From an uncultured Gemmataceae bacterium (lineage in GTDB: Bacteria > Planctomycetota > Planctomycetia > Gemmatales > Gemmataceae): a DNA stretch of 64,000 nucleotides. Each line of letters begins with the position of its first letter. The stretch's first letter is position 1. The stretch covers positions 1,056,001 through 1,120,000 of the forward strand of contig CAVVPN010000004.1 in NCBI GenBank assembly GCA_963750165.1. Reading direction: 5' to 3'. The notes under the pieces were generated by a model. It made no database searches. It had not been told where the DNA came from and saw only the letters and a list, made by a program, of their open reading frames with translations. Below are positions 24,114 through 47,659 of the stretch, piece after piece. The translations under genes and the position numbers were made by a program.

Positions 24114-25028
24114 ATGGATGAGGCACTGGCCGAATTCCTCCGCCACCTGGCTCTGGAAAAAAATGCCTCGCCGAACACCGTCAAGTCCTATCGCGAGGAC
24201 CTGACGCAGGCGCTGGGCTTTTTCCGCACCCGGTTGGGGGACCGGTCGGCGGCCGTGTCGGCGCTGACGACCCGGCTGCTGCGCGCCTACACCGTCTGGC
24301 TGCACGAACAGGGCTACGCCAAAACGACCATCGCCCGCCGCATTGCCTCAGTGCGGGCGTGGTGCCGGTTCCTGTGCCGGCAGGGCGTGCTCAGCGCCAA
24401 CCCCGCCGACGGCCTGCGCGGCCCGCGTCAGGACAAGAAACTGCCGCACTTCCTCGCCCAGGGGGAGATTACTCGCCTCCTCGAAGCGCCTGGCAGTGCG
24501 ACACCGCTGGCCCTGCGCGACCGGGCCTGGCTGGAGACGTTGTACTCCGCCGGGCTGCGCGTCAGTGAGCTGACGGGCCTGAACCTGGCCGACCTGGACC
24601 TGGACGCCAGCCTGACGACGGTGCGCGGCAAGGGCCGGCGTGAACGGCTGGCCATCCTGGGCCCGAACGCCGTGCAGGCGCTGCGGGACTGGCTGGCGGT
24701 GCGCGGCCAGGTGGGCGTGCGACCCGACGGCTTCCGGCCGCGCGGGGCACAGGATGCGGTGTTCCTGAACAAGAACGGCACCCGGTTGACGGCGCGGAGC
24801 GTCGGCCGGCTATTAGAGAAGTACCTCGCCCAGGTAGGGCTGGACCCGCGCACCAGTCCGCACACGCTGCGGCACAGTTTCGCGACGCATCTGCTCGATA
24901 ACGGCGCGGACATCCGCAGTGTGCAGGAATTGCTCGGCCATCGCAGCCTGGGCACCACGCAAATTTACACTCATGTGACCACGCAGCGGTTGCGCGATCA
25001 CTACCAGAAGGCTCATCCACGCGCCTGA
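24114..25028 (+). CDS. xerC: Tyrosine recombinase XerC
   Basis: SAM-like N-domain; RDRA..ETLYSAGLRVSEL, GKG, HTLRHSFATHLL, LGH, TTQIYTHV. Confidence 0.88.
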   Translation: MDEALAEFLRHLALEKNASPNTVKSYREDLTQALGFFRTRLGDRSAAVSALTTRLLRAYTVWLHEQGYAKTTIARRIASVRAWCRFLCRQGVLSANPADGLRGPRQDKKLPHFLAQGEITRLLEAPGSATPLALRDRAWLETLYSAGLRVSELTGLNLADLDLDASLTTVRGKGRRERLAILGPNAVQALRDWLAVRGQVGVRPDGFRPRGAQDAVFLNKNGTRLTARSVGRLLEKYLAQVGLDPRTSPHTLRHSFATHLLDNGADIRSVQELLGHRSLGTTQIYTHVTTQRLRDHYQKAHPRA

Positions 25029-31959: not shown

Positions 31960-32045
31960 GTGTAGCGGGTAGTAGGTCCGGCGAGCCGAGCCGGACCCGC
32001 AGCGGGTGCCGCTCGGCTCGCGGCACCTACCCCAGACCGCTACAC
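31960..32045. repeat. REP-like compound hairpin
   Basis: GTGTAGCGG...GCGAGCCGAGC...GCTCGGCTCGC...CCGCTACAC. Confidence 0.7.
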
Positions 32046-32268
32046 CCAACCGCAATCCGCTTTAGTCGGCGGTCCAGTTTTTGGGTCCACTATAGTCTCC
32101 TGGTCAAGCACCCTGATCGGACAGGCACCCAGATGGTTGTAGCCGGCGGTATGCAGCGGATACCGGGTAAGGCAGTTAGTATTCCGGGAAAAAGCGCTGC
32201 TGATACAAAAGCACTCCACCTCGTGAGCGAGCACTTGTCAGCAACGCTCGTTACGCGCGTTGGTCACC

Positions 32269-32317
32269 TCGACCGGAGCAACCAGGGTGATGTGCGCAAC
32301 CTGCTCCGGTCCGACAC
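32269..32317. repeat. Repeat family R1, copy B
   Basis: Contains the perfect stem GACCGGAGCA/TGCTCCGGTC with a 21-nt spacer. Confidence 0.85.
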
Positions 32318-32388
32318 GCCGAAGCAATGTGGGGCGAAGCGGTCAGAATGATGGTTTTCTGATCCGCCATTGGCTCGTCAGCCGGTGT

Positions 32389-39331: not shown

Positions 39332-40048
39332 TACGGCTTTGTTACTTGGGGTGGACAGTCGTATAATGTGGTATGAAACCCACAACCCGAGTCCCGCTCG
39401 CGCCAGCCGAGCCGTTGCCTGCGCTTTCCTGGTGGCGCAGGCCCGGCGGGGCGGCGCGGCCCGGCGGGCCGACGCCGTGGTGGCGGCGCAGCCGGCCCGG
39501 GGTTGGCGGACGGTGCGCTGGCGCGAGGGCAGCAAGGGCTGGCTGCGGTGCCGCGCCGTGGCGCTGCGCTGCTGGCGGGTGCGGCCCGACGGCCGGCGGC
39601 GGGCCGGCTGGCTGCTCGGAGAGGACGGCAGCGACGGCAAGCGGCGCTACCACTGGAGCAACTGCGGCCGGCGCGCGTCGCTGGGGCGGTTGTTGGAGTA
39701 CGCGCACCGGCGGCACTGGGTGGAGCGCTACCACGAGGAGGCCAAGGGGCTGCTGGGCTGGGACCAGTATCAGGGGCGGCTGTGGACGGGCTTCCACCGC
39801 AACAGCGTGTTGGTGATGCTGGCCTACAGCTTTTTGGTCCAGCAGGAGTGGCAGGCACGGCAGCAGGTCAGCCGACGCGGGCGCCCGCGTCGGCCTTTTT
39901 CCCCCTCGGCCCGACCGCCGACGGGCGTCGCTGCCTGAGGTCCACCGCCGCGTCTGTGACTGGCTGCTGGACCAGGCACGGCGCGAGCTCAATAGTCGCG
40001 AACACATTGCGCACTTCCGCCCACTACTTAACTGACAAAGCCGTATTA
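39329..40048 (+). mobile_element. Internally deleted IS701-family element (720 bp)
   Basis: Inverted repeats TAATACGGCTTTGTTACTT / AACTGACAAAGCCGTATTA (17/19). Transposase C-terminus RHWVERYHEEAKGLLGWDQYQGRLW joined out of frame to a short N-terminus. Confidence 0.85.
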
Positions 40049-40064
40049 GGGTGCTTCGGTACAT

Positions 40065-40113
40065 TCGACCGAAGTATCCAGGGTGATTCGCGCAACCGAC
40101 TCCGGTCCGACAC
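40065..40113. repeat. Repeat family R1, copy C
   Basis: 43/49 to copy A; 16 bp from the IS701 right end. Confidence 0.85.
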
Positions 40114-40185
40114 ACCTAATTGCAGATCGTCCGAAGCTTCCAAAGCGTATTGCGGGCATCGCTCCCCATCAAGCAAAGCACCCGG

Positions 40186-41304
40186 TCACACCCGCAGCAG
40201 TCGATCCCGGCCCGCAATGTCCCACGTCCCCACGAGCCGGCCGCCCTCGATGACATACGCCCGCTGGTGCATGGCGCACGTCGGGCAGATGTGCGTCGGG
40301 ATGGCGAACGCCTCGTCACCCGGCTGAAAGCGCGCCGCCGCGGGCGTCTCGATGACCAGGTGTTCCTCGTTCTGCAACACCGCCTCGTACTCGGGCACGT
40401 CCAGCAGGATGAGCCGCTTGCCCGCCGGCGGATCGCTGGCGACGGCCTTGTAGCCAAGGTCGAAGGTCACGCGCGTCGGCGTCGGCCGGCTGATGACGCG
40501 CGTCAACAGCAGCGCCGCCGGCACGAAGCCGCTCAGATCCGCGAACCGACTGCCGTAGCCGTGGTCGTGCAGCACACAGGTTCCCGGCGCGAGTTCGACG
40601 CCCGGCAATTGCAATTTCGCGTGGACCGGAAACGTCGGCGTGCCGCCCAGTACCAGTCGCGGCACCGGCAGCCTCTGCTGTTCCAGCGCCGCGCGCATCT
40701 CCAGCACCGGACCTAGCTGGCGGTCCACTGCCTCCTGTCGGTCCGCGAGTGCCTCCTGATGATTGTGGCCGTCGTAGACGTGCAGGCCGCCGGGCGCCAG
40801 GCCGGGCAGGCGCGCGAACTGCTCGTAGAGCCGCGCCGCCTCCGGCCCGGGCGCAATGCCAGTGCGGTGCTGGCCGACGTCAATGTCCAGCAGCACGTCC
40901 GCGCGCAGGTTCGCGCCGGCCAGGGCCGCGGACAGGTCACGAGCCGCTTTTGGGTGGTCGCAGAGCACGGAGAACCGGCATTGCGGATACGTCTGCAATA
41001 GCTGGACGAACCGGCCGCAGTTGGGGCCGACGAGGTTGTACGCCAGCAGCACGTCAGGCACGCCGCAGGAGGCGACCAGGTCGGCCTCGGCGATGGTGGC
41101 GACCTTGTGTTTGGTGATGCCGGCGGCGAGTTCCAGGCGGACGATTTCGCGCGTCTTGTGCGTCTTGACGTGTGGCCGCAGCCGGTCGGCACTGCCGGCG
41201 ATTTCCAGGCAGCGGGCGATGTTCCGACGGATGAGGTCCTTGTAAAACAACAGCGCGGGGCTGAAGATCGCGGCGGTGTCGTGGACGGCGTATTGCGGGT
41301 TCAT
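40186..41304 (-). CDS. D-threonine aldolase / DSD1-like PLP enzyme
   Basis: LRPHVKTHK, GQHRTG, HVYDGH, EEH, PTHICPT. Confidence 0.88.
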   Translation of the reverse strand: MNPQYAVHDTAAIFSPALLFYKDLIRRNIARCLEIAGSADRLRPHVKTHKTREIVRLELAAGITKHKVATIAEADLVASCGVPDVLLAYNLVGPNCGRFVQLLQTYPQCRFSVLCDHPKAARDLSAALAGANLRADVLLDIDVGQHRTGIAPGPEAARLYEQFARLPGLAPGGLHVYDGHNHQEALADRQEAVDRQLGPVLEMRAALEQQRLPVPRLVLGGTPTFPVHAKLQLPGVELAPGTCVLHDHGYGSRFADLSGFVPAALLLTRVISRPTPTRVTFDLGYKAVASDPPAGKRLILLDVPEYEAVLQNEEHLVIETPAAARFQPGDEAFAIPTHICPTCAMHQRAYVIEGGRLVGTWDIAGRDRLLRV

Positions 41305-41415: not shown

Positions 41416-42632
41416 GTGGAGTCCAACGAACCAGGAAAACAACTCGACCGGCGCGCGTGGCTGCGCTGGGCGGGAGCGACGGGCCTGGCCGGGCTGCTGC
41501 CGGCCGGATGTGGGCAGAGGCCGCAGGTGGCCCCGCCTGATTCGGCGCCGCTGATGCGCTTCCCGCAAAAAGTCGCGCTGCGCGTGCTCAGCGACCGCGC
41601 CCCCTGCCTGGAAACGCCCTGGCGCTACTTCCGCCACGACCTGACGCCCAACGAGGCCTTTTACGTCCGCTGGCACCTTGAAGCGATCCCGACGCGCGTG
41701 GACCTGGCGACCTGGCGGCTGCGCGTCGGCGGCCACGTCCGGCAGCCGCTGGCGCTGTCGCTGGACGACCTGCGCGGCATGGAGGCGGTCTCGGTGGTGG
41801 CGGTCAACCAGTGCTCGGGCAACTCGCGGAGTTTCTTCGCGCCGCGCGTGCCCGGCGGCCAGTGGTTCAACGGCGCGATGGGCAACGCCCGCTGGACGGG
41901 GGTCCGCCTCCGCGACCTGCTGCGGCGGGCGGAAGTGCGGGCCGGGGCGGTGCAGGTCTCCTTCAACGGCCTGGACGAGGGGCCGCTGCCGACGGTGCCC
42001 GACTTCATCAAGGCCCTCGACTTGGACCACGCCGAGCAGCCCGAGGTGCTGGTCGCTTACGAAATGAACGGCGCCCCGCTGCCGCTGCTGAACGGCTTCC
42101 CGGCGCGCCTGATAGTGCCCGGCTGGTACGCGACGTACTGGGTCAAGGCGCTGTCCGACATCATCGTGCTGGACCGCCGCTACACCGGCTTCTGGATGGC
42201 CAGTGCTTACCGCATTCCGACGACGCCCGGGGCGAACGAGACGCCGCAGGCGCTCGCCCCGGCCGCGGAGACGTGTCCGATCAACCGCATGAACGTCCGC
42301 TCGTTCTTCGTGCGCCCCGACCCAGACGCCCGGGTGCCGGCCGGCCAGGCTTGTCCGCTGGAGGGCATCGCCTTCGACGGCGGGGCCGGCATTCGCACGG
42401 TGGAAGTCTCGACCGACGGCGGCAGCTGGACGGCGGCGCGGCTGGGCGAGGACCTGGGCCGGTTCTCGTTCCGCCGCTGGCACGCCGAGTGGACGCCGCC
42501 GCGCGCGGCGACTACCGCTTGCAAGTCCGCGCCGTCAGCAACGCGAACGAGCGCCAGCCGACCCAGGCCAACTGGAACCGCGGCGGTTACATGCGCAACG
42601 TCATCGAGGAAATCCGCGTGACTTCGGAATGA
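41416..42632 (+). CDS. Sulfite-oxidase-family molybdoenzyme, SorA-like, Tat-exported (frameshift near 42500)
   Basis: DRRAWL Tat motif; FYVRWH, QCSGNSR, GAMGNARWTG, NGFPARLIVPGWY; the C-terminus WNRGGYMRN lies in another frame. Confidence 0.85.
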
Positions 42633-42669
42633 TGAATGATGAATTGTCTTCCATTCATTATTCAGCGTC

Positions 42670-42779
42670 TGTTCCAGAAGGGTTGGGGCCCGAGTTGGAG
42701 TCCCGGCTTGAGCCGGGTTTACAGCCGAACCCGGCTCAAGCCGGGACTCCAACCCCGACGGAACGCCCCTTTCGGAACA
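42670..42779. repeat. REP/MITE-like hairpin
   Basis: Perfect 26-bp arms at 42694-42719 and 42728-42753 inside imperfect outer arms TGTTCCAGAAGGG / CCCTTTCGGAACA. Confidence 0.8.
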
Positions 42780-42861
42780 ACCAAGTTCACGTGCGGGCCG
42801 AGTGGGCTGGGCGTGTCCGATTAACCTCAGATGGCCCGTCACGTGCAACGGTTGGTTCGGC
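42772..42861 (-). other. attC-like site 1
   Basis: Minus strand: GCCGAAC-5nt-GTTGCACGTG-A-CGGGCC...GGCCCG-CACGTGAAC-6nt-GTTCCGA, with two unpaired bases; 4 nt after the PIN stop. Confidence 0.8.
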
Positions 42862-42865
42862 CCGC

Positions 42866-43246
42866 CTACCGGATGTAGGGCTGGCCCGTCACGAGGCCGG
42901 GCACGATCCGGTAGTGCTTGTCGTTGAACGTACACAACTCTGCCGAAAGACCGACGGTGATGGCCGCGATCAGGGCGTCCAGCAACCCGAGTCCGTGCGA
43001 CAGGTGGAAGGCTGTAAAGTCGGCCAGTGCCCGCTGGCAGTCCGCGGTCGTCGGCCAGACGATGGGCAGGGGGGCGGTCAGTCGCAACACATCGCGAACC
43101 TGCCCGGCGTTCTGCGCCCCCTGGATCAACTCCATGACGACCAGCCCGGGCACAGTCGGCAGTTCAGTGAGGCCTGCGAACCAAGCCAGGGCGGCGGCGT
43201 GCCCGCGTTACACGTCGATCAGTACGTCGGTGTCGAGGACGAGCAT
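42866..43246 (-). pseudogene. PIN-domain (VapC-like) toxin with a premature TAA at codon 13
   Basis: MLVLDTDVLIDV*RGH...EL...DALIAA...TFNDKHY. Confidence 0.8.
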
Positions 43247-43251
43247 CGCGG

Positions 43252-43509
43252 TTAGGCTCCGCGGCGCTGCGCCCGATCGCGGAGGCGGCGGCCTTCCGCT
43301 TGGGCATCGGTAATGTCCGGTCGGCTGCCGACCAAGCCCTCGGCCCGCCAGAAGGCGACGAGGTCCGCACCGCTCCGAACCGCGGCCACGGCCGGCCGGG
43401 CGGACGTAAGTAGGCGAACGGCATAATCGGGCAGCGACAACCCCAGGCGCGATGCCTCGTCGGTCAGGGCCTCGGCCAGATCATCGGGTAGTTCAACGGT
43501 CTGAGGCAT
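43252..43509 (-). CDS. Putative antitoxin (RHH-like)
   Basis: MPQTVELPDDLAEALTDEASRLGLS; 5 nt upstream of the PIN gene. Confidence 0.7.
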   Translation of the reverse strand: MPQTVELPDDLAEALTDEASRLGLSLPDYAVRLLTSARPAVAAVRSGADLVAFWRAEGLVGSRPDITDAQAEGRRLRDRAQRRGA

Positions 43510-43610
43510 GGTTCGTCTCCCACGGCAGCGATTTTAACACCCCGATTTTCTATGGTCCCACGAACCGCCCCGGGCGTCAACAGCTCATCAGGACGGCCCT
43601 ACTTCAGAAG

Positions 43611-43699
43611 GCCGAACGCCCCAGTTCAGGTGCGGGCCACTCGACTCAATGTGTCCGTGTAGACTCAGTTGGCCCGTCACCTGCAGCCGCTGGTTCGGC
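43611..43699 (-). other. attC-like site 2
   Basis: GCCGAAC-5nt-GCTGCAGGTG-A-CGGGCCA...TGGCCCG-CACCTGAAC-6nt-GTTCGGC. Confidence 0.85.
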
Positions 43700-43741
43700 T
43701 CGGTATTTCTATCCGTTGGTGCTGGACCTCGCAATCTCCAT

Positions 43742-45424
43742 TTACCGCCTCAACAGGCGTGTTGACAGTGCGTCGCGTAGTGCCGCCTCGCGGGCGGCGA
43801 GGAAAGCGTCGAGGTTATTCTCCTCCATCGCTTTGATTCCATCAGCCGTGATAAAGTGCGCCTTAAACGTCAAGGCAAGCGACATCTTGTCACCCCCGTG
43901 GGAATCCAGGCAGACCTGAAGGAACTCTGCGGGCAACTTGTCGCTCTTTTTGCGGTTAGTGTCCTTGTGAATCACGGATAGACCAAAGATGTTCTTGGCC
44001 GCCGCGGGAAACTTCGACACCGGGAAGACGTGATCTACCTCGCAATCCTCCAGCTTGACCGATTGACCGTTGATGAAATCGGTCGCCCCATTAAGAACGA
44101 CCAGATTGTAGAATGCCTTAGCGAGTGCGGATGTGCGGGAGGCTTTTCGAATATCCGTAATGACGCTGGCAATGTCCGCCGTCATATAGGGAACAGCGGA
44201 ATCGTTTCCGAACCACGCGGCAACCGCCTTGTAATCAGCGTACGAGTGTGTCTCTACCGAACGAGCATAACGGCCGGTGAACACAGCTGTCCAGTACCAG
44301 CTGTCAATCTTGTCGTAAAACGCCTTCGCTCCGCCGAGAGATTGAGCCCTTTGAATGAGCGCTGCTAATGGGACGGCAATGCTCGTGTAAGGAAACAGGG
44401 GGATACGTTGTTTCTTCGCACGGAGTCGGACAGCGCCGTAGACGTCTCGCATCCGTGTAGCAGCTTTCTCAAGGTATTCGCGAGCGGCTTCCCACCGGTT
44501 GTAGAACTCTGCCTGGGCTTTGTTTTGATCAGCGCGCTGATCGACGAGCCCGAGAAGGTTCTTGTTTTTCGGCTCCCTCTCGTTGGACAGCGCCATTACG
44601 CGCAGCAGAGCCTCGGGTTCAACGATTTGCGGCTCGCCGCTCTTGATTTTTTGCTTTAGGTCGTTTAGCCGTATGCCGATCGGGTAGTACCGAGCTACTG
44701 CCAAATCGAAGATATCAAGGCGCGTACCGAGTCGGTTGATCCTCTCGAATGTACTCACGATCTCGTCGTCTGGCGTGTCGTGGGGCAGGGTGACGACGGC
44801 CACCTCATAATCAAGGATGCTCTGAAGAAGCCTGTTTAACTCGTCCCGTATGCCTGGCTCAATGGTGCTGCCGCGCGAATTCAGGTACTCGGTGAGCGTC
44901 TCCGGCGAGCGAAAAGACGCCATGCTCGGATAGCTCTGGACGTTGATGCCGGTATTTTGGACTAGAAACTCGAGGAATTTTTCCAAGAGCTTCTTCTCCT
45001 CCTTCGGGTGCAGCTTCCGGACGAGACCCTCGATCTTCTGAACTCCGACTACCTCTTGGCATCCAATCAAGTTGAGAAAGAACCGCGTAGGCAGAACCTC
45101 GTCTCGGAGCGAGACAGAAGGCTCGAAGAAAGCGTAAAAAAGGGAGGTAAGCCGCTGCTGCCCATCGAGGACGTAGCTAATGGTCACGTGGGTCTTCGGG
45201 TCAGCTTTTACCCCGGGAATCAAACGAGGAGCAAAGCGCAGGTTCGATGTCGGACTTTCAAGAAGCAGAAGAGTGCCAATGAAGTACCGATTGACGACCG
45301 AATTCAGGAGCTCCTCTACCTGTTTGAGAGTCCACACGAAATCACGTTGAAAGTCGGGAATGATTAGTTTCCCCGTACGAACGTCGTCAAGGAGTGACGG
45401 CAGTTTCCGTTCTTGGACTTGCAT
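43742..45424 (-). CDS. DUF262 plus HNH-like (GmrSD-type) putative restriction nuclease
   Basis: PDFQRDFVW, LDGQQRLTS, FERINRLG; C-terminal VDHVFP...N..KSDK; lower GC. Confidence 0.82.
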   Translation of the reverse strand: MQVQERKLPSLLDDVRTGKLIIPDFQRDFVWTLKQVEELLNSVVNRYFIGTLLLLESPTSNLRFAPRLIPGVKADPKTHVTISYVLDGQQRLTSLFYAFFEPSVSLRDEVLPTRFFLNLIGCQEVVGVQKIEGLVRKLHPKEEKKLLEKFLEFLVQNTGINVQSYPSMASFRSPETLTEYLNSRGSTIEPGIRDELNRLLQSILDYEVAVVTLPHDTPDDEIVSTFERINRLGTRLDIFDLAVARYYPIGIRLNDLKQKIKSGEPQIVEPEALLRVMALSNEREPKNKNLLGLVDQRADQNKAQAEFYNRWEAAREYLEKAATRMRDVYGAVRLRAKKQRIPLFPYTSIAVPLAALIQRAQSLGGAKAFYDKIDSWYWTAVFTGRYARSVETHSYADYKAVAAWFGNDSAVPYMTADIASVITDIRKASRTSALAKAFYNLVVLNGATDFINGQSVKLEDCEVDHVFPVSKFPAAAKNIFGLSVIHKDTNRKKSDKLPAEFLQVCLDSHGGDKMSLALTFKAHFITADGIKAMEENNLDAFLAAREAALRDALSTRLLRR

Positions 45425-45558
45425 AGGGGTCTCCGATGGGGCGGCTACGATGGGTCACAGTGAACTTCTACCGCGGGGAATGAAGTCGAACCTCGTGTCC
45501 ATCAGGATGCGATACAGTTCCTTCAATTCGGCTCTCGCCATGGCATACCCTCCGCGCC

Positions 45559-45620
45559 GCCGAACTGGTGATTCGTCCTCTGACGCTTGCCGCTTTGCTT
45601 CTCAGCGTTAATAGTTCGGC
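45559..45620 (-). other. attC-like site 3 (short, weak internal pairing)
   Basis: CGCCGAACT...AGTTCGGCG ends; 1 nt after the stop of the 45622 ORF. Confidence 0.55.
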
Positions 45621-45621
45621 G

Positions 45622-45993
45622 CTACTGACTCTCATCTGACACTTCAATGATCCGCGATCCCATCCCACGCGCCTCGGCGATTGCGGACTGAAAGTACTGG
45701 ACAGCAAATGCCGGATCGGGGATTGAATAGACGTGATCAGGCAGCCATTCAAGGTCTCGTTTGGCAGCTGAAAAGCTGTAGCGACCGAAGCGTTGCAGCT
45801 GATAACCAATGCGATTGTCGGACAATCGACGTTTCACGATTCGACGCGATTCACTGAAGCGATGAACGACAGCGCGGATAGTCGGTGGCTGGCCGACATA
45901 GTGGGCGTCGGGATTGACGATGTCCCGATGCTCAAACCCCGCATGTCGTTCGGAGTCCGTCAAATCCTCGGGGAACCAGTTCGAAGCCGCCAT
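45622..45993 (-). CDS. Hypothetical cassette protein (123 aa)
   Basis: GGAGG RBS just after GTTCGGC; bounded by attC-like sites. Confidence 0.6.
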   Translation of the reverse strand: MAASNWFPEDLTDSERHAGFEHRDIVNPDAHYVGQPPTIRAVVHRFSESRRIVKRRLSDNRIGYQLQRFGRYSFSAAKRDLEWLPDHVYSIPDPAFAVQYFQSAIAEARGMGSRIIEVSDESQ

Positions 45994-46024
45994 GATATCC
46001 TCCTTCAAGTGCTCCGCACCCTTT

Positions 46025-46152
46025 GCCGAACATGGTATTATTGCCAACTGCGCGGCCAATGCAACATTGCTTCGTCGGTTCTCGGCGTCTTTTTCGACGG
46101 ATTCCAACCTCGCGATGTTGCGTTATCCGCGCAGTTGTCAATAGCGTGCGCT
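46025..46152 (-). other. attC-like site 4 with a degenerate outer box
   Basis: 16/17 inverted repeat TATTGCCAACTGCGCGG / CCGCGCAGTTGTCAATA, inner GCAACAT/ATGTTGC, GTTCGGC at the cassette side. Confidence 0.5.
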
Positions 46153-46753
46153 GCACACGCTATCAAGACGACATTTTCGGGGCGGTACGCTGCCCTCAGG
46201 CGAGCGTACCGCCCCGAAAATCGGATTGCAAGGGAAAAAGCAAAAGGTCGTTTTCTACACTTGAAATCCGTTGTGTCTTACAGCGAAGCCCGCTCGCGCG
46301 TCCGAACAAGGATTAGGGCACGCCGCGCGCTCTATCAAGGATCGGTTTTCGGATTTTACGCTCCCAACAGGCGCCGGCGAAGCACGGCGCCTGTTGGGAG
46401 CGTAACCGCCCCGATTCCGAAATGCAAGAAGCGCGCGCCGGAAATCCGAAAAGCCACCGGCCGTGTCTCAAGAACCGCCTGAGAAAGCTACAATCCCGGG
46501 AGGTAATGTGCCTGAACAGCTTGTTAGTCGGCTTTCAAAAGCCGAGTATTACGGCCCAAAGCCGAGTAGCAAGGCCAAGTGGGAGGGTAAGGCCGTCGCC
46601 TTGCTATGTCAAGCGTCTAACTGACCGAGCAAATTCGTCACGCACTGCGTGACGAATCCGACGAGGCAGGTCCGGAGCGTCGGCGCCAAAATAATGTTTG
46701 GGCCTGACGGCGAATGGGGTATCCTGGACTCACCCCAACCCCGGAGGCGCGAC

Positions 46754-47059
46754 ATGGCACAGGTCCCCGCGTTGCAGGCGGCCTATGACGAGGTGGACAT
46801 CACCCCACCGCTGGGCGGTTCCATGCCCGGCTACTTCCGCGACCGATTGGCCACCGGCACGCTGGATCCGCTCAAGGCCAAGGCGCTCTACCTGCGGCGC
46901 GATACCGAGAGTGTTGCCCTGGTCGCCTGCGACCTGATCGGCGTGGGCGCCCCCATCGTCCGGCGCATCCGCACGGCCGTCGCCGGCCTGACCAAAAGCC
47001 CGCCGCGCCACGTCTGGGCGAAGACTGCGGCGGGGCTGCTCGAGGAACTGGCGGGCTGA
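46754..47059 (+). pseudogene. Neutral-ceramidase-like protein remnant (N-terminus joined to a C-terminal tail)
   Basis: VDITPPLGGSMPGYF...LDPLKAKAL...ALVACDLIG; breaks before the expected HTH motif. Confidence 0.65.
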
Positions 47060-47085
47060 GCCGATGCCGTGCGTTGCCAGCCGTT

Positions 47086-47233
47086 GCAAGGGCGTCAAAC
47101 CTGGCTCGCGTGGAGTTGGCGGCCTTGGCGGTCTTGCTCGAACCGGCAGCTTCAGGCATTGGCCGGCACGGCGCGGCAGGTCCGCCTGGCGCGGCGCGGC
47201 ACGTGACACGCCTGGCGGCCTTGGCGTTCTTGC
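47086..47233 (+). repeat. R3 terminal motif, copies 3 and 4
   Basis: GCAAGGGCGTC...TTGGCGGCC TTGGCGGTC TTGC (47086-47137) and CTGGCGGCC TTGGCGTTC TTGC ending at 47233. Confidence 0.7.
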
Positions 47234-47266
47234 TCATTATTCATCATTCCAGTGGAGGTGTCTGCC

Positions 47267-47659
47267 ATGATCCAGGCCGGCGGCAAGCAGCGCATGGTCG
47301 TCGTGCTGACGGCCCTCGTCGGCGTGACCGCCACCGCGGTCGCCTACCTCGGCACACGGCAGGACCAGCAACCGGCCGCGCCGCCGTCCGCGTCCGCCCC
47401 GGCCGGCGCCGCGTTCACCAGCGAAGTGATCGTGATGCCGCACGACGAGCCGGAATGGCCGCCGGGGCCTCACCAGCGCACCTTCCTCGCTAACTGCACG
47501 ATCTGCCACTCGACGCGCCTGGTGATGACGCAACCGTCGTTCCCGCGCGCGAAGTGGCAGGAGATCGTTCATAAGATGGTCAAGACCTACGGCGCCCCGA
47601 TCACCCACGAATCCGAACAGCAGATCGTCGAGTATCTGGTGACGGTTCGCGGCCAGTGA
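47267..47659 (+). CDS. Membrane-anchored monohaem cytochrome c, SorB-like
   Basis: NCTICHS...QP...WQEIVHKMVKTYGAPI; GGAGGT RBS. Confidence 0.82.
   Translation: MIQAGGKQRMVVVLTALVGVTATAVAYLGTRQDQQPAAPPSASAPAGAAFTSEVIVMPHDEPEWPPGPHQRTFLANCTICHSTRLVMTQPSFPRAKWQEIVHKMVKTYGAPITHESEQQIVEYLVTVRGQ

Follow-up and report, generated by a model that had tools for sequence, protein, structure and literature searches.

We analysed a 64,000-nucleotide stretch of DNA from an uncultured Gemmataceae bacterium (the window, C4:1056001-1120000 of a 9.6-Mb genome in 12 contigs; window positions are given as plain numbers and all others per contig, as C3, C4, C11 or C12), which contains a small integron cassette array with toxin-antitoxin and predicted defence genes, no integrase gene, and a non-coding head in front of its first gene. 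The G+C content falls from about 0.67 to 0.55 across window 44-46 kb. The features of the head and the array, in the direction of the minus strand, are as follows.

46511..46621, minus strand: P0, a candidate third platform, with a GTT start, TTGACA with a 17-nt spacer, two 19-nt direct repeats and a simple site of AAC, 5 nt and GTT
46301..46517, minus strand: module A, with a GTT start at 46517, promoter-like hexamers at 46427-46399, a hairpin at 46356-46405 and an intact palindromic attI-type end with L box CCCTAAT
46025..46307, minus strand: module B, which begins at the GTT of module A, with promoter-like hexamers at 46231-46203, a hairpin at 46173-46221 and an interrupted attI-like end
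46039..46143, no strand: palindromic, TA-flanked insertion that parts the simple site from the remainder of module B
46025..46043, minus strand: attI-like simple site of module B (AAT, 5 nt, GTT; G at 46031)
45622..45993, minus strand: first cassette gene, 123 aa, with four homologues of 60-76% identity, all named hypothetical
45559..45620, minus strand: site 3, a degenerate att site with an attC-type R'' box 1 nt past a stop codon and an attI-like 3' end
45455..45541, minus strand: 28-codon open reading frame (ORF) with a ribosome-binding site and no family, at the start of the GmrSD cassette
43742..45424, minus strand: GmrSD/BrxU-like protein, 560 aa, with a DUF262 domain with DGQQR and a C-terminal DHVFP HNH-type motif
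43611..43699, minus strand: attC site 2, crossover G at 43617, which terminates the GmrSD cassette
43252..43509, minus strand: likely antitoxin, 85 aa, with a weak VapB match (NF050181, E 0.0024, under the cut-off)
42866..43246, minus strand: VapC-like PIN toxin gene (PF01850, E 1.5e-6) with an in-frame stop at codon 13
42772..42861, minus strand: attC site 1, crossover G at 42778, which terminates the toxin-antitoxin cassette

Sites 1 and 2 are true attC sites. Both have paired R boxes, spacers of 5 and 6 nt, paired L boxes and two extrahelical bases (C and T on the plus strand, which is the bottom strand), as verified by sequence and fold, and their bottom strands fold with z scores of -2.4 (site 1) and -3.1 (site 2). 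A hidden Markov model (HMM) built from 28 attC of the genome's main array, with sites 1 and 2 excluded from training, matched them at E 1.8e-14 and E 5.5e-16, and on the reversed genome it gave a single match of E 5.8. The covariance model R2, a genome-specific attC model trained on 25 sites of the main array (both sides changed in 85 cells, a number reached in 0 of 500 shuffles), matched site 1 at E 2.5e-16 and site 2 at E 7.4e-19; moreover, site 2 shows 85% identity to main-array attC. The original prediction had read four attC sites here. It was right on the anatomy of the first two, which is integron attC geometry, on the distances of 4, 42 and 1 nt between a stop codon and sites 1-3, and on the co-orientation of the cassettes, whose genes all lie on the minus strand. 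Its count of four did not survive: site 3 is degenerate (R2 E 1.1), and site 4 (46025-46152), tried as a long attC, gave no R2 match at E up to 10, its hairpin being a separate TA-flanked palindrome and its true content the simple site of module B. Two co-oriented sites 750 bp apart with no intI nearby form a group of clustered attC sites without an integron integrase (CALIN), which the part of PMC4889954 available to us defines as at least two attC less than 4 kb apart, on one strand, with no intI nearby.

An integrase gene, which the prediction had proposed to look for elsewhere in the genome, is present on the same contig. The single full intI lies at C4:1198586-1199908 (TIGR02249 match at C4:1198898-1199845, 465 bits versus a cut-off of 265) and encodes 441 residues with a duplicated N-terminal domain and the catalytic motifs, while a truncated intI copy (TIGR02249) lies at C4:1190279-1190728. 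The intI heads a main array of 51 attC at E <0.001 (54 at E <0.05) at C4:1149326-1198013, and 36 dispersed attC outside it bring the genome total to about 87. The nearest main-array attC is about 47-50 kb from the window array, the truncated intI about 88 kb and the full intI about 96 kb. Since a full intI and a large array of the same family share its contig, the window array is a CALIN by definition in an integron-bearing genome; the description "CALIN-like, integrase-less" thus holds for the array by the published definition but not for the genome. The statement that the window has no IntI was confirmed: the lone tyrosine recombinase match there (24114-25028), considered as IntI, falls far under the TIGR02249 cut-off and presumably is XerC-like. 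Among the 36 dispersed attC, 25 lie within 80 nt past the end of a co-oriented ORF and 8 on the opposite side, compared with 0.285 for random positions. The prediction was to be dropped if the attC model missed even sites 1 and 2 and similar repeats showed no gene-end or orientation bias across the genome; it stands on this point, because both sites score and the dispersed attC show the gene-end bias.

Several further observations concern the integrase and the main array. The duplicated N-terminal domain of IntI (L001:1189-2511) is common to L084, L041 and L042 and absent from the shorter IntIs of other relatives. At C4:1189735-1190728 (L002, L014), a 97.5% copy of the platform within the main array consists of the 5' half of intI and attI with one repeat fewer; it ends at an inverted-repeat end and supplies the main array with a second attI. 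One 1.55-kb element, in copies 99% identical, interrupts three attC at the same position (C3:2408181, C4:1181374, C4:1187861).

The DNA upstream of the first cassette resembles other places of the genome that adjoin dispersed attC. An iterated module HMM, whose seeds were chosen by likeness to the window copy and not by proximity to attC, gave 27 non-overlapping matches on the genome at E <0.01, of which 17 were full-length (reversed-genome best E 1.4); module B is a divergent member of the family (E 0.0024). The module is non-coding and about 200 bp in size. It has two hexamers 17 nt apart, a covarying hairpin and a further palindrome; these precede AAT, 4-7 nt and GTT, behind which a gene usually lies. 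A hexamer starting with TT, 17 nt and a T..T hexamer align gap-free in 13 of 13 copies, and the hairpin has 27 cells with both sides changed versus 7.7 in shuffled alignments, with 0 of 500 shuffles reaching 27. Modules are stacked in tandem at three loci (the window, C11:455 kb and C12:1301 kb), and on the independent metagenome contig L096 a whole module (E 3.5e-25) is followed by attC. Outside the main array, 11 of 22 module loci, some of which are weak or partial matches, are followed, no more than 3.5 kb downstream, by a co-oriented attC (10 of 21 minus the window) and none has one on the opposite side, against a null mean of 0.12 and a maximum of 3 in 10,000 draws. Conversely, 11 of the 27 dispersed attC clusters have a module upstream and two more have another attI-like end. 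Considered as an attC on either strand, the module was rejected, as the attC models gave no match across 46025-46517.

The window array has partly decayed: module B is split, site 3 has degenerated and the toxin gene is interrupted by its stop. Module A, in contrast, appears intact. By its anatomy P0 is a candidate third docking platform; no homologue was found elsewhere in the genome, and 251 relatives gave two weak partial matches. The TA-flanked palindrome of about 105 bp occurs in two copies (46039-46143 and C12:652769-652875) and is a possible miniature element. In the module hairpin (46356-46405 and homologues) the left arm includes the -10-like hexamer, and in L096 the two arms are changed jointly; since a transcript would not span the full hairpin stem, the pairing may operate in the DNA. 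Two attI-like heads of a second family (C12:348567-348640 and C3:2406580-2406649), each preceded by a TTGAC hexamer of its own, stand before arrays of four and three attC, respectively. In the satellite array at C11:694120-695868 a gene pair, which we take to be HicAB-like, lies between a module leader and a truncated module end and is followed by a further cassette. Rfam matches at 42000-47500 were five hairpin-type microRNA, far under the gathering scores, and were discarded.

Judged by sequence, the module end is an attI type. In L084 its motif, with direct repeats, is found about 195 bp upstream of a full, divergent intI, and in L131 it stands some 270 bp upstream of an intI that is truncated; these matches concern the end motif and not the hairpin part of the module. 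The L084 IntI is the nearest of 16 compared to the genome's IntI (65.5%), and 11 of 12 intI loci checked terminate in AAT, 4-5 nt and GTT. Modules A and B fit an attI simple site, with an L box, a short spacer, a GTT core and the first gene directly behind, and the L box of the module and that of attI1, as given in the available part of PMC12901181, are the same at 6 of 7 letters. Site 3 is related to these ends as well. Its R boxes are fully complementary, in-register L''/L' pairing is absent, and R'' with about 35 extra bases after it is retained; because 11 letters up to GTT are identical to two native attI, compared with at most 8 for 78 attC ends, it is likely a hybrid resembling the delta-attI cassettes described in the portion of PMC12901181 at hand.

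A looser pattern of the module end alone, run on metagenomes and GTDB, gave 25 loci (17 metagenome, 8 GTDB). Named Planctomycetota account for four of the eight GTDB loci, and 5 of the 25 loci have a downstream attC, many contigs being too short to judge. L087, L092 and L102-L105 have low or no model support beyond the end pattern, and these matches are probably due to chance. A shorter version of the pattern occurs in 7 of 251 family genomes. Orphan copies of the end motif were seen behind an EF-G gene, behind a cyanophycin synthetase-like gene and near a WD40 gene. No intI was found in the incomplete genomes G122 and G123, and none at E 1e-30 in G124, also incomplete, yet a truncated intI is present in the latter. 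G121 (L107, L108, L109, L113) has two intI, each with its own attI, and two orphan palindromic attI-type sites, one of them directly behind an EF-G gene.

Our preferred reading, to which we assign a probability of roughly 0.6, is that the window holds a satellite array behind a stack of modules that act as promoter and attI docking sites, and that the intI, about 96 kb distant, serves it in trans. IntI would bind the module end as a double-stranded attI and insert cassettes at the module GTT, and the upstream hexamers would transcribe the first cassettes. Spread of the modules by the integrase appears likely. At about even odds, they may have spread within composite cassettes made up of GTT, leader, promoter, attI, gene and attC. 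Circles of this kind would insert via their own attC, either into a genomic GTT site or into an attI that an earlier module provides, which would produce tandem stacks by known reactions only. Further, and more tentatively, we suggest that planctomycete integrases could spread their own landing pads, with GTT-bounded, gene-less promoter-attI modules moving in cassettes, stacking and founding expressed arrays.

The decay of the window satellite also suits another account, in which the orphan heads are remnants of complete integrons after deletion of intI, the modules are inherited and not mobile, and the window array is a decaying CALIN. L131, with the end motif beside a truncated intI, and the truncated intI with an attI copy inside the main array are what such losses might leave, and Cury et al. 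(PMC4889954, in the part available) list loss of intI among CALIN origins. However, modules A and B have no adjacent intI and no remnant within 3 kb upstream, and none was detected at E <0.65 within 3 kb upstream of any of 22 module or attI-like loci; about 20 losses would be needed, and neither a fixed 5' GTT nor tandem stacks at three loci are expected from deletion. We therefore regard this account as unlikely.

The movement of a single unit is seen in the toxin-antitoxin cassette, which is 97% identical to a copy in the satellite at C11:414.8 kb from GTT to GTT, with different neighbours: the identity begins at the GTT of a different preceding attC and stops at the GTT of its own attC. This cassette, at least, evidently moved as a single cassette, and its cassette-exact duplicate speaks indirectly for attC sites that IntI would recombine as folded bottom strands. 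A second cassette is common to the C12 and C3 satellites (99%). For the modules, a GTT core lies 40-47 nt upstream of the module-model start at 9 of 22 loci (chance 0.018 per locus; the 40-47 nt window was chosen after looking, and this list of 22 swaps two weak matches for two second-type attI-like sites), although one of the nine is probably chance, since sister copies are without it. One main-array attC is followed, from its GTT on, by the same module leader, which at C11:843 kb adjoins an attI of a different type. Such GTT borders and the shared leader fit units bounded by crossover points.

These leader junctions bear on a further rival, namely an ordinary CALIN that arose by cassette insertion at genomic attG sites, with the modules as transposase-spread repeats merely offering GTT targets or promoters. 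According to the available part of 10.1101/2022.09.11.507474, attC x attG insertion is efficient, and those insertions that are expressed sit close to resident promoters. This rival would also account for the 16 of 27 dispersed clusters with no module match within 3.5 kb upstream, for the half of the module loci with no attC nearby, and for four near-identical modules that lie, with a gene fragment, between inverted-repeat ends (C12:63800-63972 and C3:2668951, 2672861 and 2678132). What it does not explain is that the end motif is a native attI beside intI in L084 and L131, that one leader is joined to two different attI types, and that a main-array attC has this leader starting at its GTT; we consider this rival improbable. 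Three of the four inverted-repeat-borne copies lie within 10 kb on C3.

A number of results weigh against the docking-site reading. The inverted-repeat-borne copies imply that a second route of spread exists, and among the 11 of 22 module loci without attC within 3.5 kb, four are sister copies inside another repeat. When the genome's own attI is compared with the module end, only the last 40 model positions match (E 0.028), and a spacer of 4-7 nt before GTT among module copies is loose for a double-stranded site. A consensus promoter scan of 45900-46760 gave 0 sites, so that the evidence for a promoter is the conserved 17-nt spacing. No cassette gene is common to the main array and any satellite, only repeated IS-like stretches, and joining the flanks of eight arrays, as an empty-site test, gave one weak match across the junction. 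The range is narrow: 100 family genomes, with 31 candidates scored per genome, gave one partial hairpin match and no full module, the strict module pattern had 0 matches in metagenomes and GTDB, and the 511-bp module stack found three weak partial matches in 251 family genomes. In E. coli, genome insertion of attI1 donors was not above background (10.1101/2022.09.11.507474, from the part at hand), so that a bare module circle is an unlikely founder and the composite cassette is the simplest route.

The array is also part of a larger insert, whose remaining features are given below.

42655..42664, no strand: left 10-bp direct repeat, inside a REP-like palindrome (resembling a repetitive extragenic palindrome) behind sorA
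42694..42753, no strand: REP-like perfect 26-bp inverted repeat downstream of the last attC, a second genome copy of which was not found
46757..47059, plus strand: gene copy with an internal deletion, 91-93% identical to the gene at C11:2207.6-2208.9 kb
47066..47233, no strand: dispersed-repeat copy, truncated, at the insert's right end, with eight other matches
47234..47243, no strand: right 10-bp direct repeat, upstream of sorB

The insert (42665-47233, 4.57 kb) lies between the 10-bp direct repeats, which read as a target duplication, and splits sorA from sorB; in relatives, 6 of 11 loci have the two genes side by side. The repeat and this adjacency mean that a block insertion did occur. 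The original prediction went further and had the assembled array carried whole, as one block, by a one-ended transposable element. The flanked block between sorA and sorB, and the non-cassette DNA on both sides of the array inside it, agree with this, but the scanned ORFs of the insert include no transposase family, and the right end is a truncated repeat in whose eight homologues no insertion sequence (IS) end was seen. Moreover, the gene fragment of the same insert (91-93%) has diverged further than the toxin-antitoxin cassette (97% to its twin), whose borders are cassette-exact, and a block move leaves ten other module-headed arrays unexplained. The block itself is supported, a one-ended carrier is not, and we consider transport of the whole array by such an element the least probable of the explanations. 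The sorA-like molybdopterin oxidoreductase gene (41548-42632) shifts frame near 42510 and is continuous in the relative L122; the frame change is either post-insertion decay or a sequence error. Fragments at 39342-40327 and 32040-32350, where two ORFs were without a Pfam match, are presumably remnants of IS701-type transposases.

As for the cargo, the types named in the original prediction, defence and toxin-antitoxin, were borne out by the GmrSD/BrxU-like protein and the VapBC-like pair. The GmrSD/BrxU-like protein matches PF03235 (E 3.3e-28) and, over residues 1-557, PADLOC HEC-05 (E 5.8e-23, 79 bits), while its HNH_4 match (E 0.0023) is under the cut-off; it is a predicted anti-phage nuclease on the strength of its domains. 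A VapBC architecture is present, with a small upstream antitoxin and then the PIN toxin; the stop at codon 13, which the prediction had overlooked, means that the window toxin is not intact, whereas the copy at C11:416041-416421 is. The homologues of the 123-aa protein are proteins of 67-216 residues, and a search of the ESM Atlas gave a best score of 0.84 and no lead.

Compared with known systems, the window array shares with CALIN and attC sites that stand alone with no integron integrase (SALIN), as far as the consulted parts of PMC4889954 and 10.1101/2022.09.11.507474 describe them, two or more attC of one orientation inside 4 kb with no intI close by, an intI at another place of the replicon, and cassettes mobilisable in trans. 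Those parts define the known ones through their attC sites alone and treat a CALIN that has split off as having lost expression from the cassette promoter (Pc), whereas the window array has its own attI-type head, common to about 20 loci. The sedentary chromosomal integron platform and attI1, in the same portion of PMC12901181, likewise have an L box, a short spacer, a GTT core, R-box-like upstream repeats and a gene directly after GTT. The modules, in contrast, are without an adjacent intI, have many copies, tandem stacks and a variable spacer, and add a covarying hairpin that overlaps a -10-like hexamer. Delta-attI cassettes of class 1 and 2 integrons (again PMC12901181, in part) have an attI-derived site at their end and remain substrates for excision and insertion by IntI1, and site 3 has some likeness to them, although it keeps its extra bases after R''; those cassettes carry a gene inside mobile integrons, whereas the modules are gene-less, promoter-like and chromosome-wide. 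Gene-less promoter cassettes, in what was available of 10.1101/2023.11.21.568050 and PMC6557892, are also non-coding cassette-like units with promoter activity, but the present modules terminate in an attI-type site and stand before arrays that lie outside the integron. The predicted enzyme shares DUF262, DGQQR, the C-terminal DH motif and a full-length profile match with the BrxU/HEC-05 GmrSD-like type IV enzymes, but the match is distant, and here it is a cassette gene, not embedded in BREX or Hma like those in the accessible part of 10.1101/2024.01.29.577857.

No published description of dispersed integrase-free attI platforms was found in a search that left subscription papers mostly outside its scope and supplements, with possible planctomycete attI lists, unread. 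According to the available part of PMC4889954, attI is rarely searched for and its sequence is unknown for most integrons, and there, as in the part of 10.1101/2022.09.11.507474 at hand, the origin and activity of CALIN are open questions. A CALIN with defence cargo is ordinary in itself. This genome, however, has 17 full copies of a module of about 200 bp together with an intact integrase, the native attI and about 87 attC, which makes capture and expression by integrase-free arrays directly testable with standard assays. If the docking-site reading is true, a single integrase would load genes at many places of the genome, and if the modules are mobile, the integron would be a distributed system instead of a single locus. 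A single intI would then run a genome-wide network of about 20 working integrons, and many CALIN would be active platforms rather than ruins.

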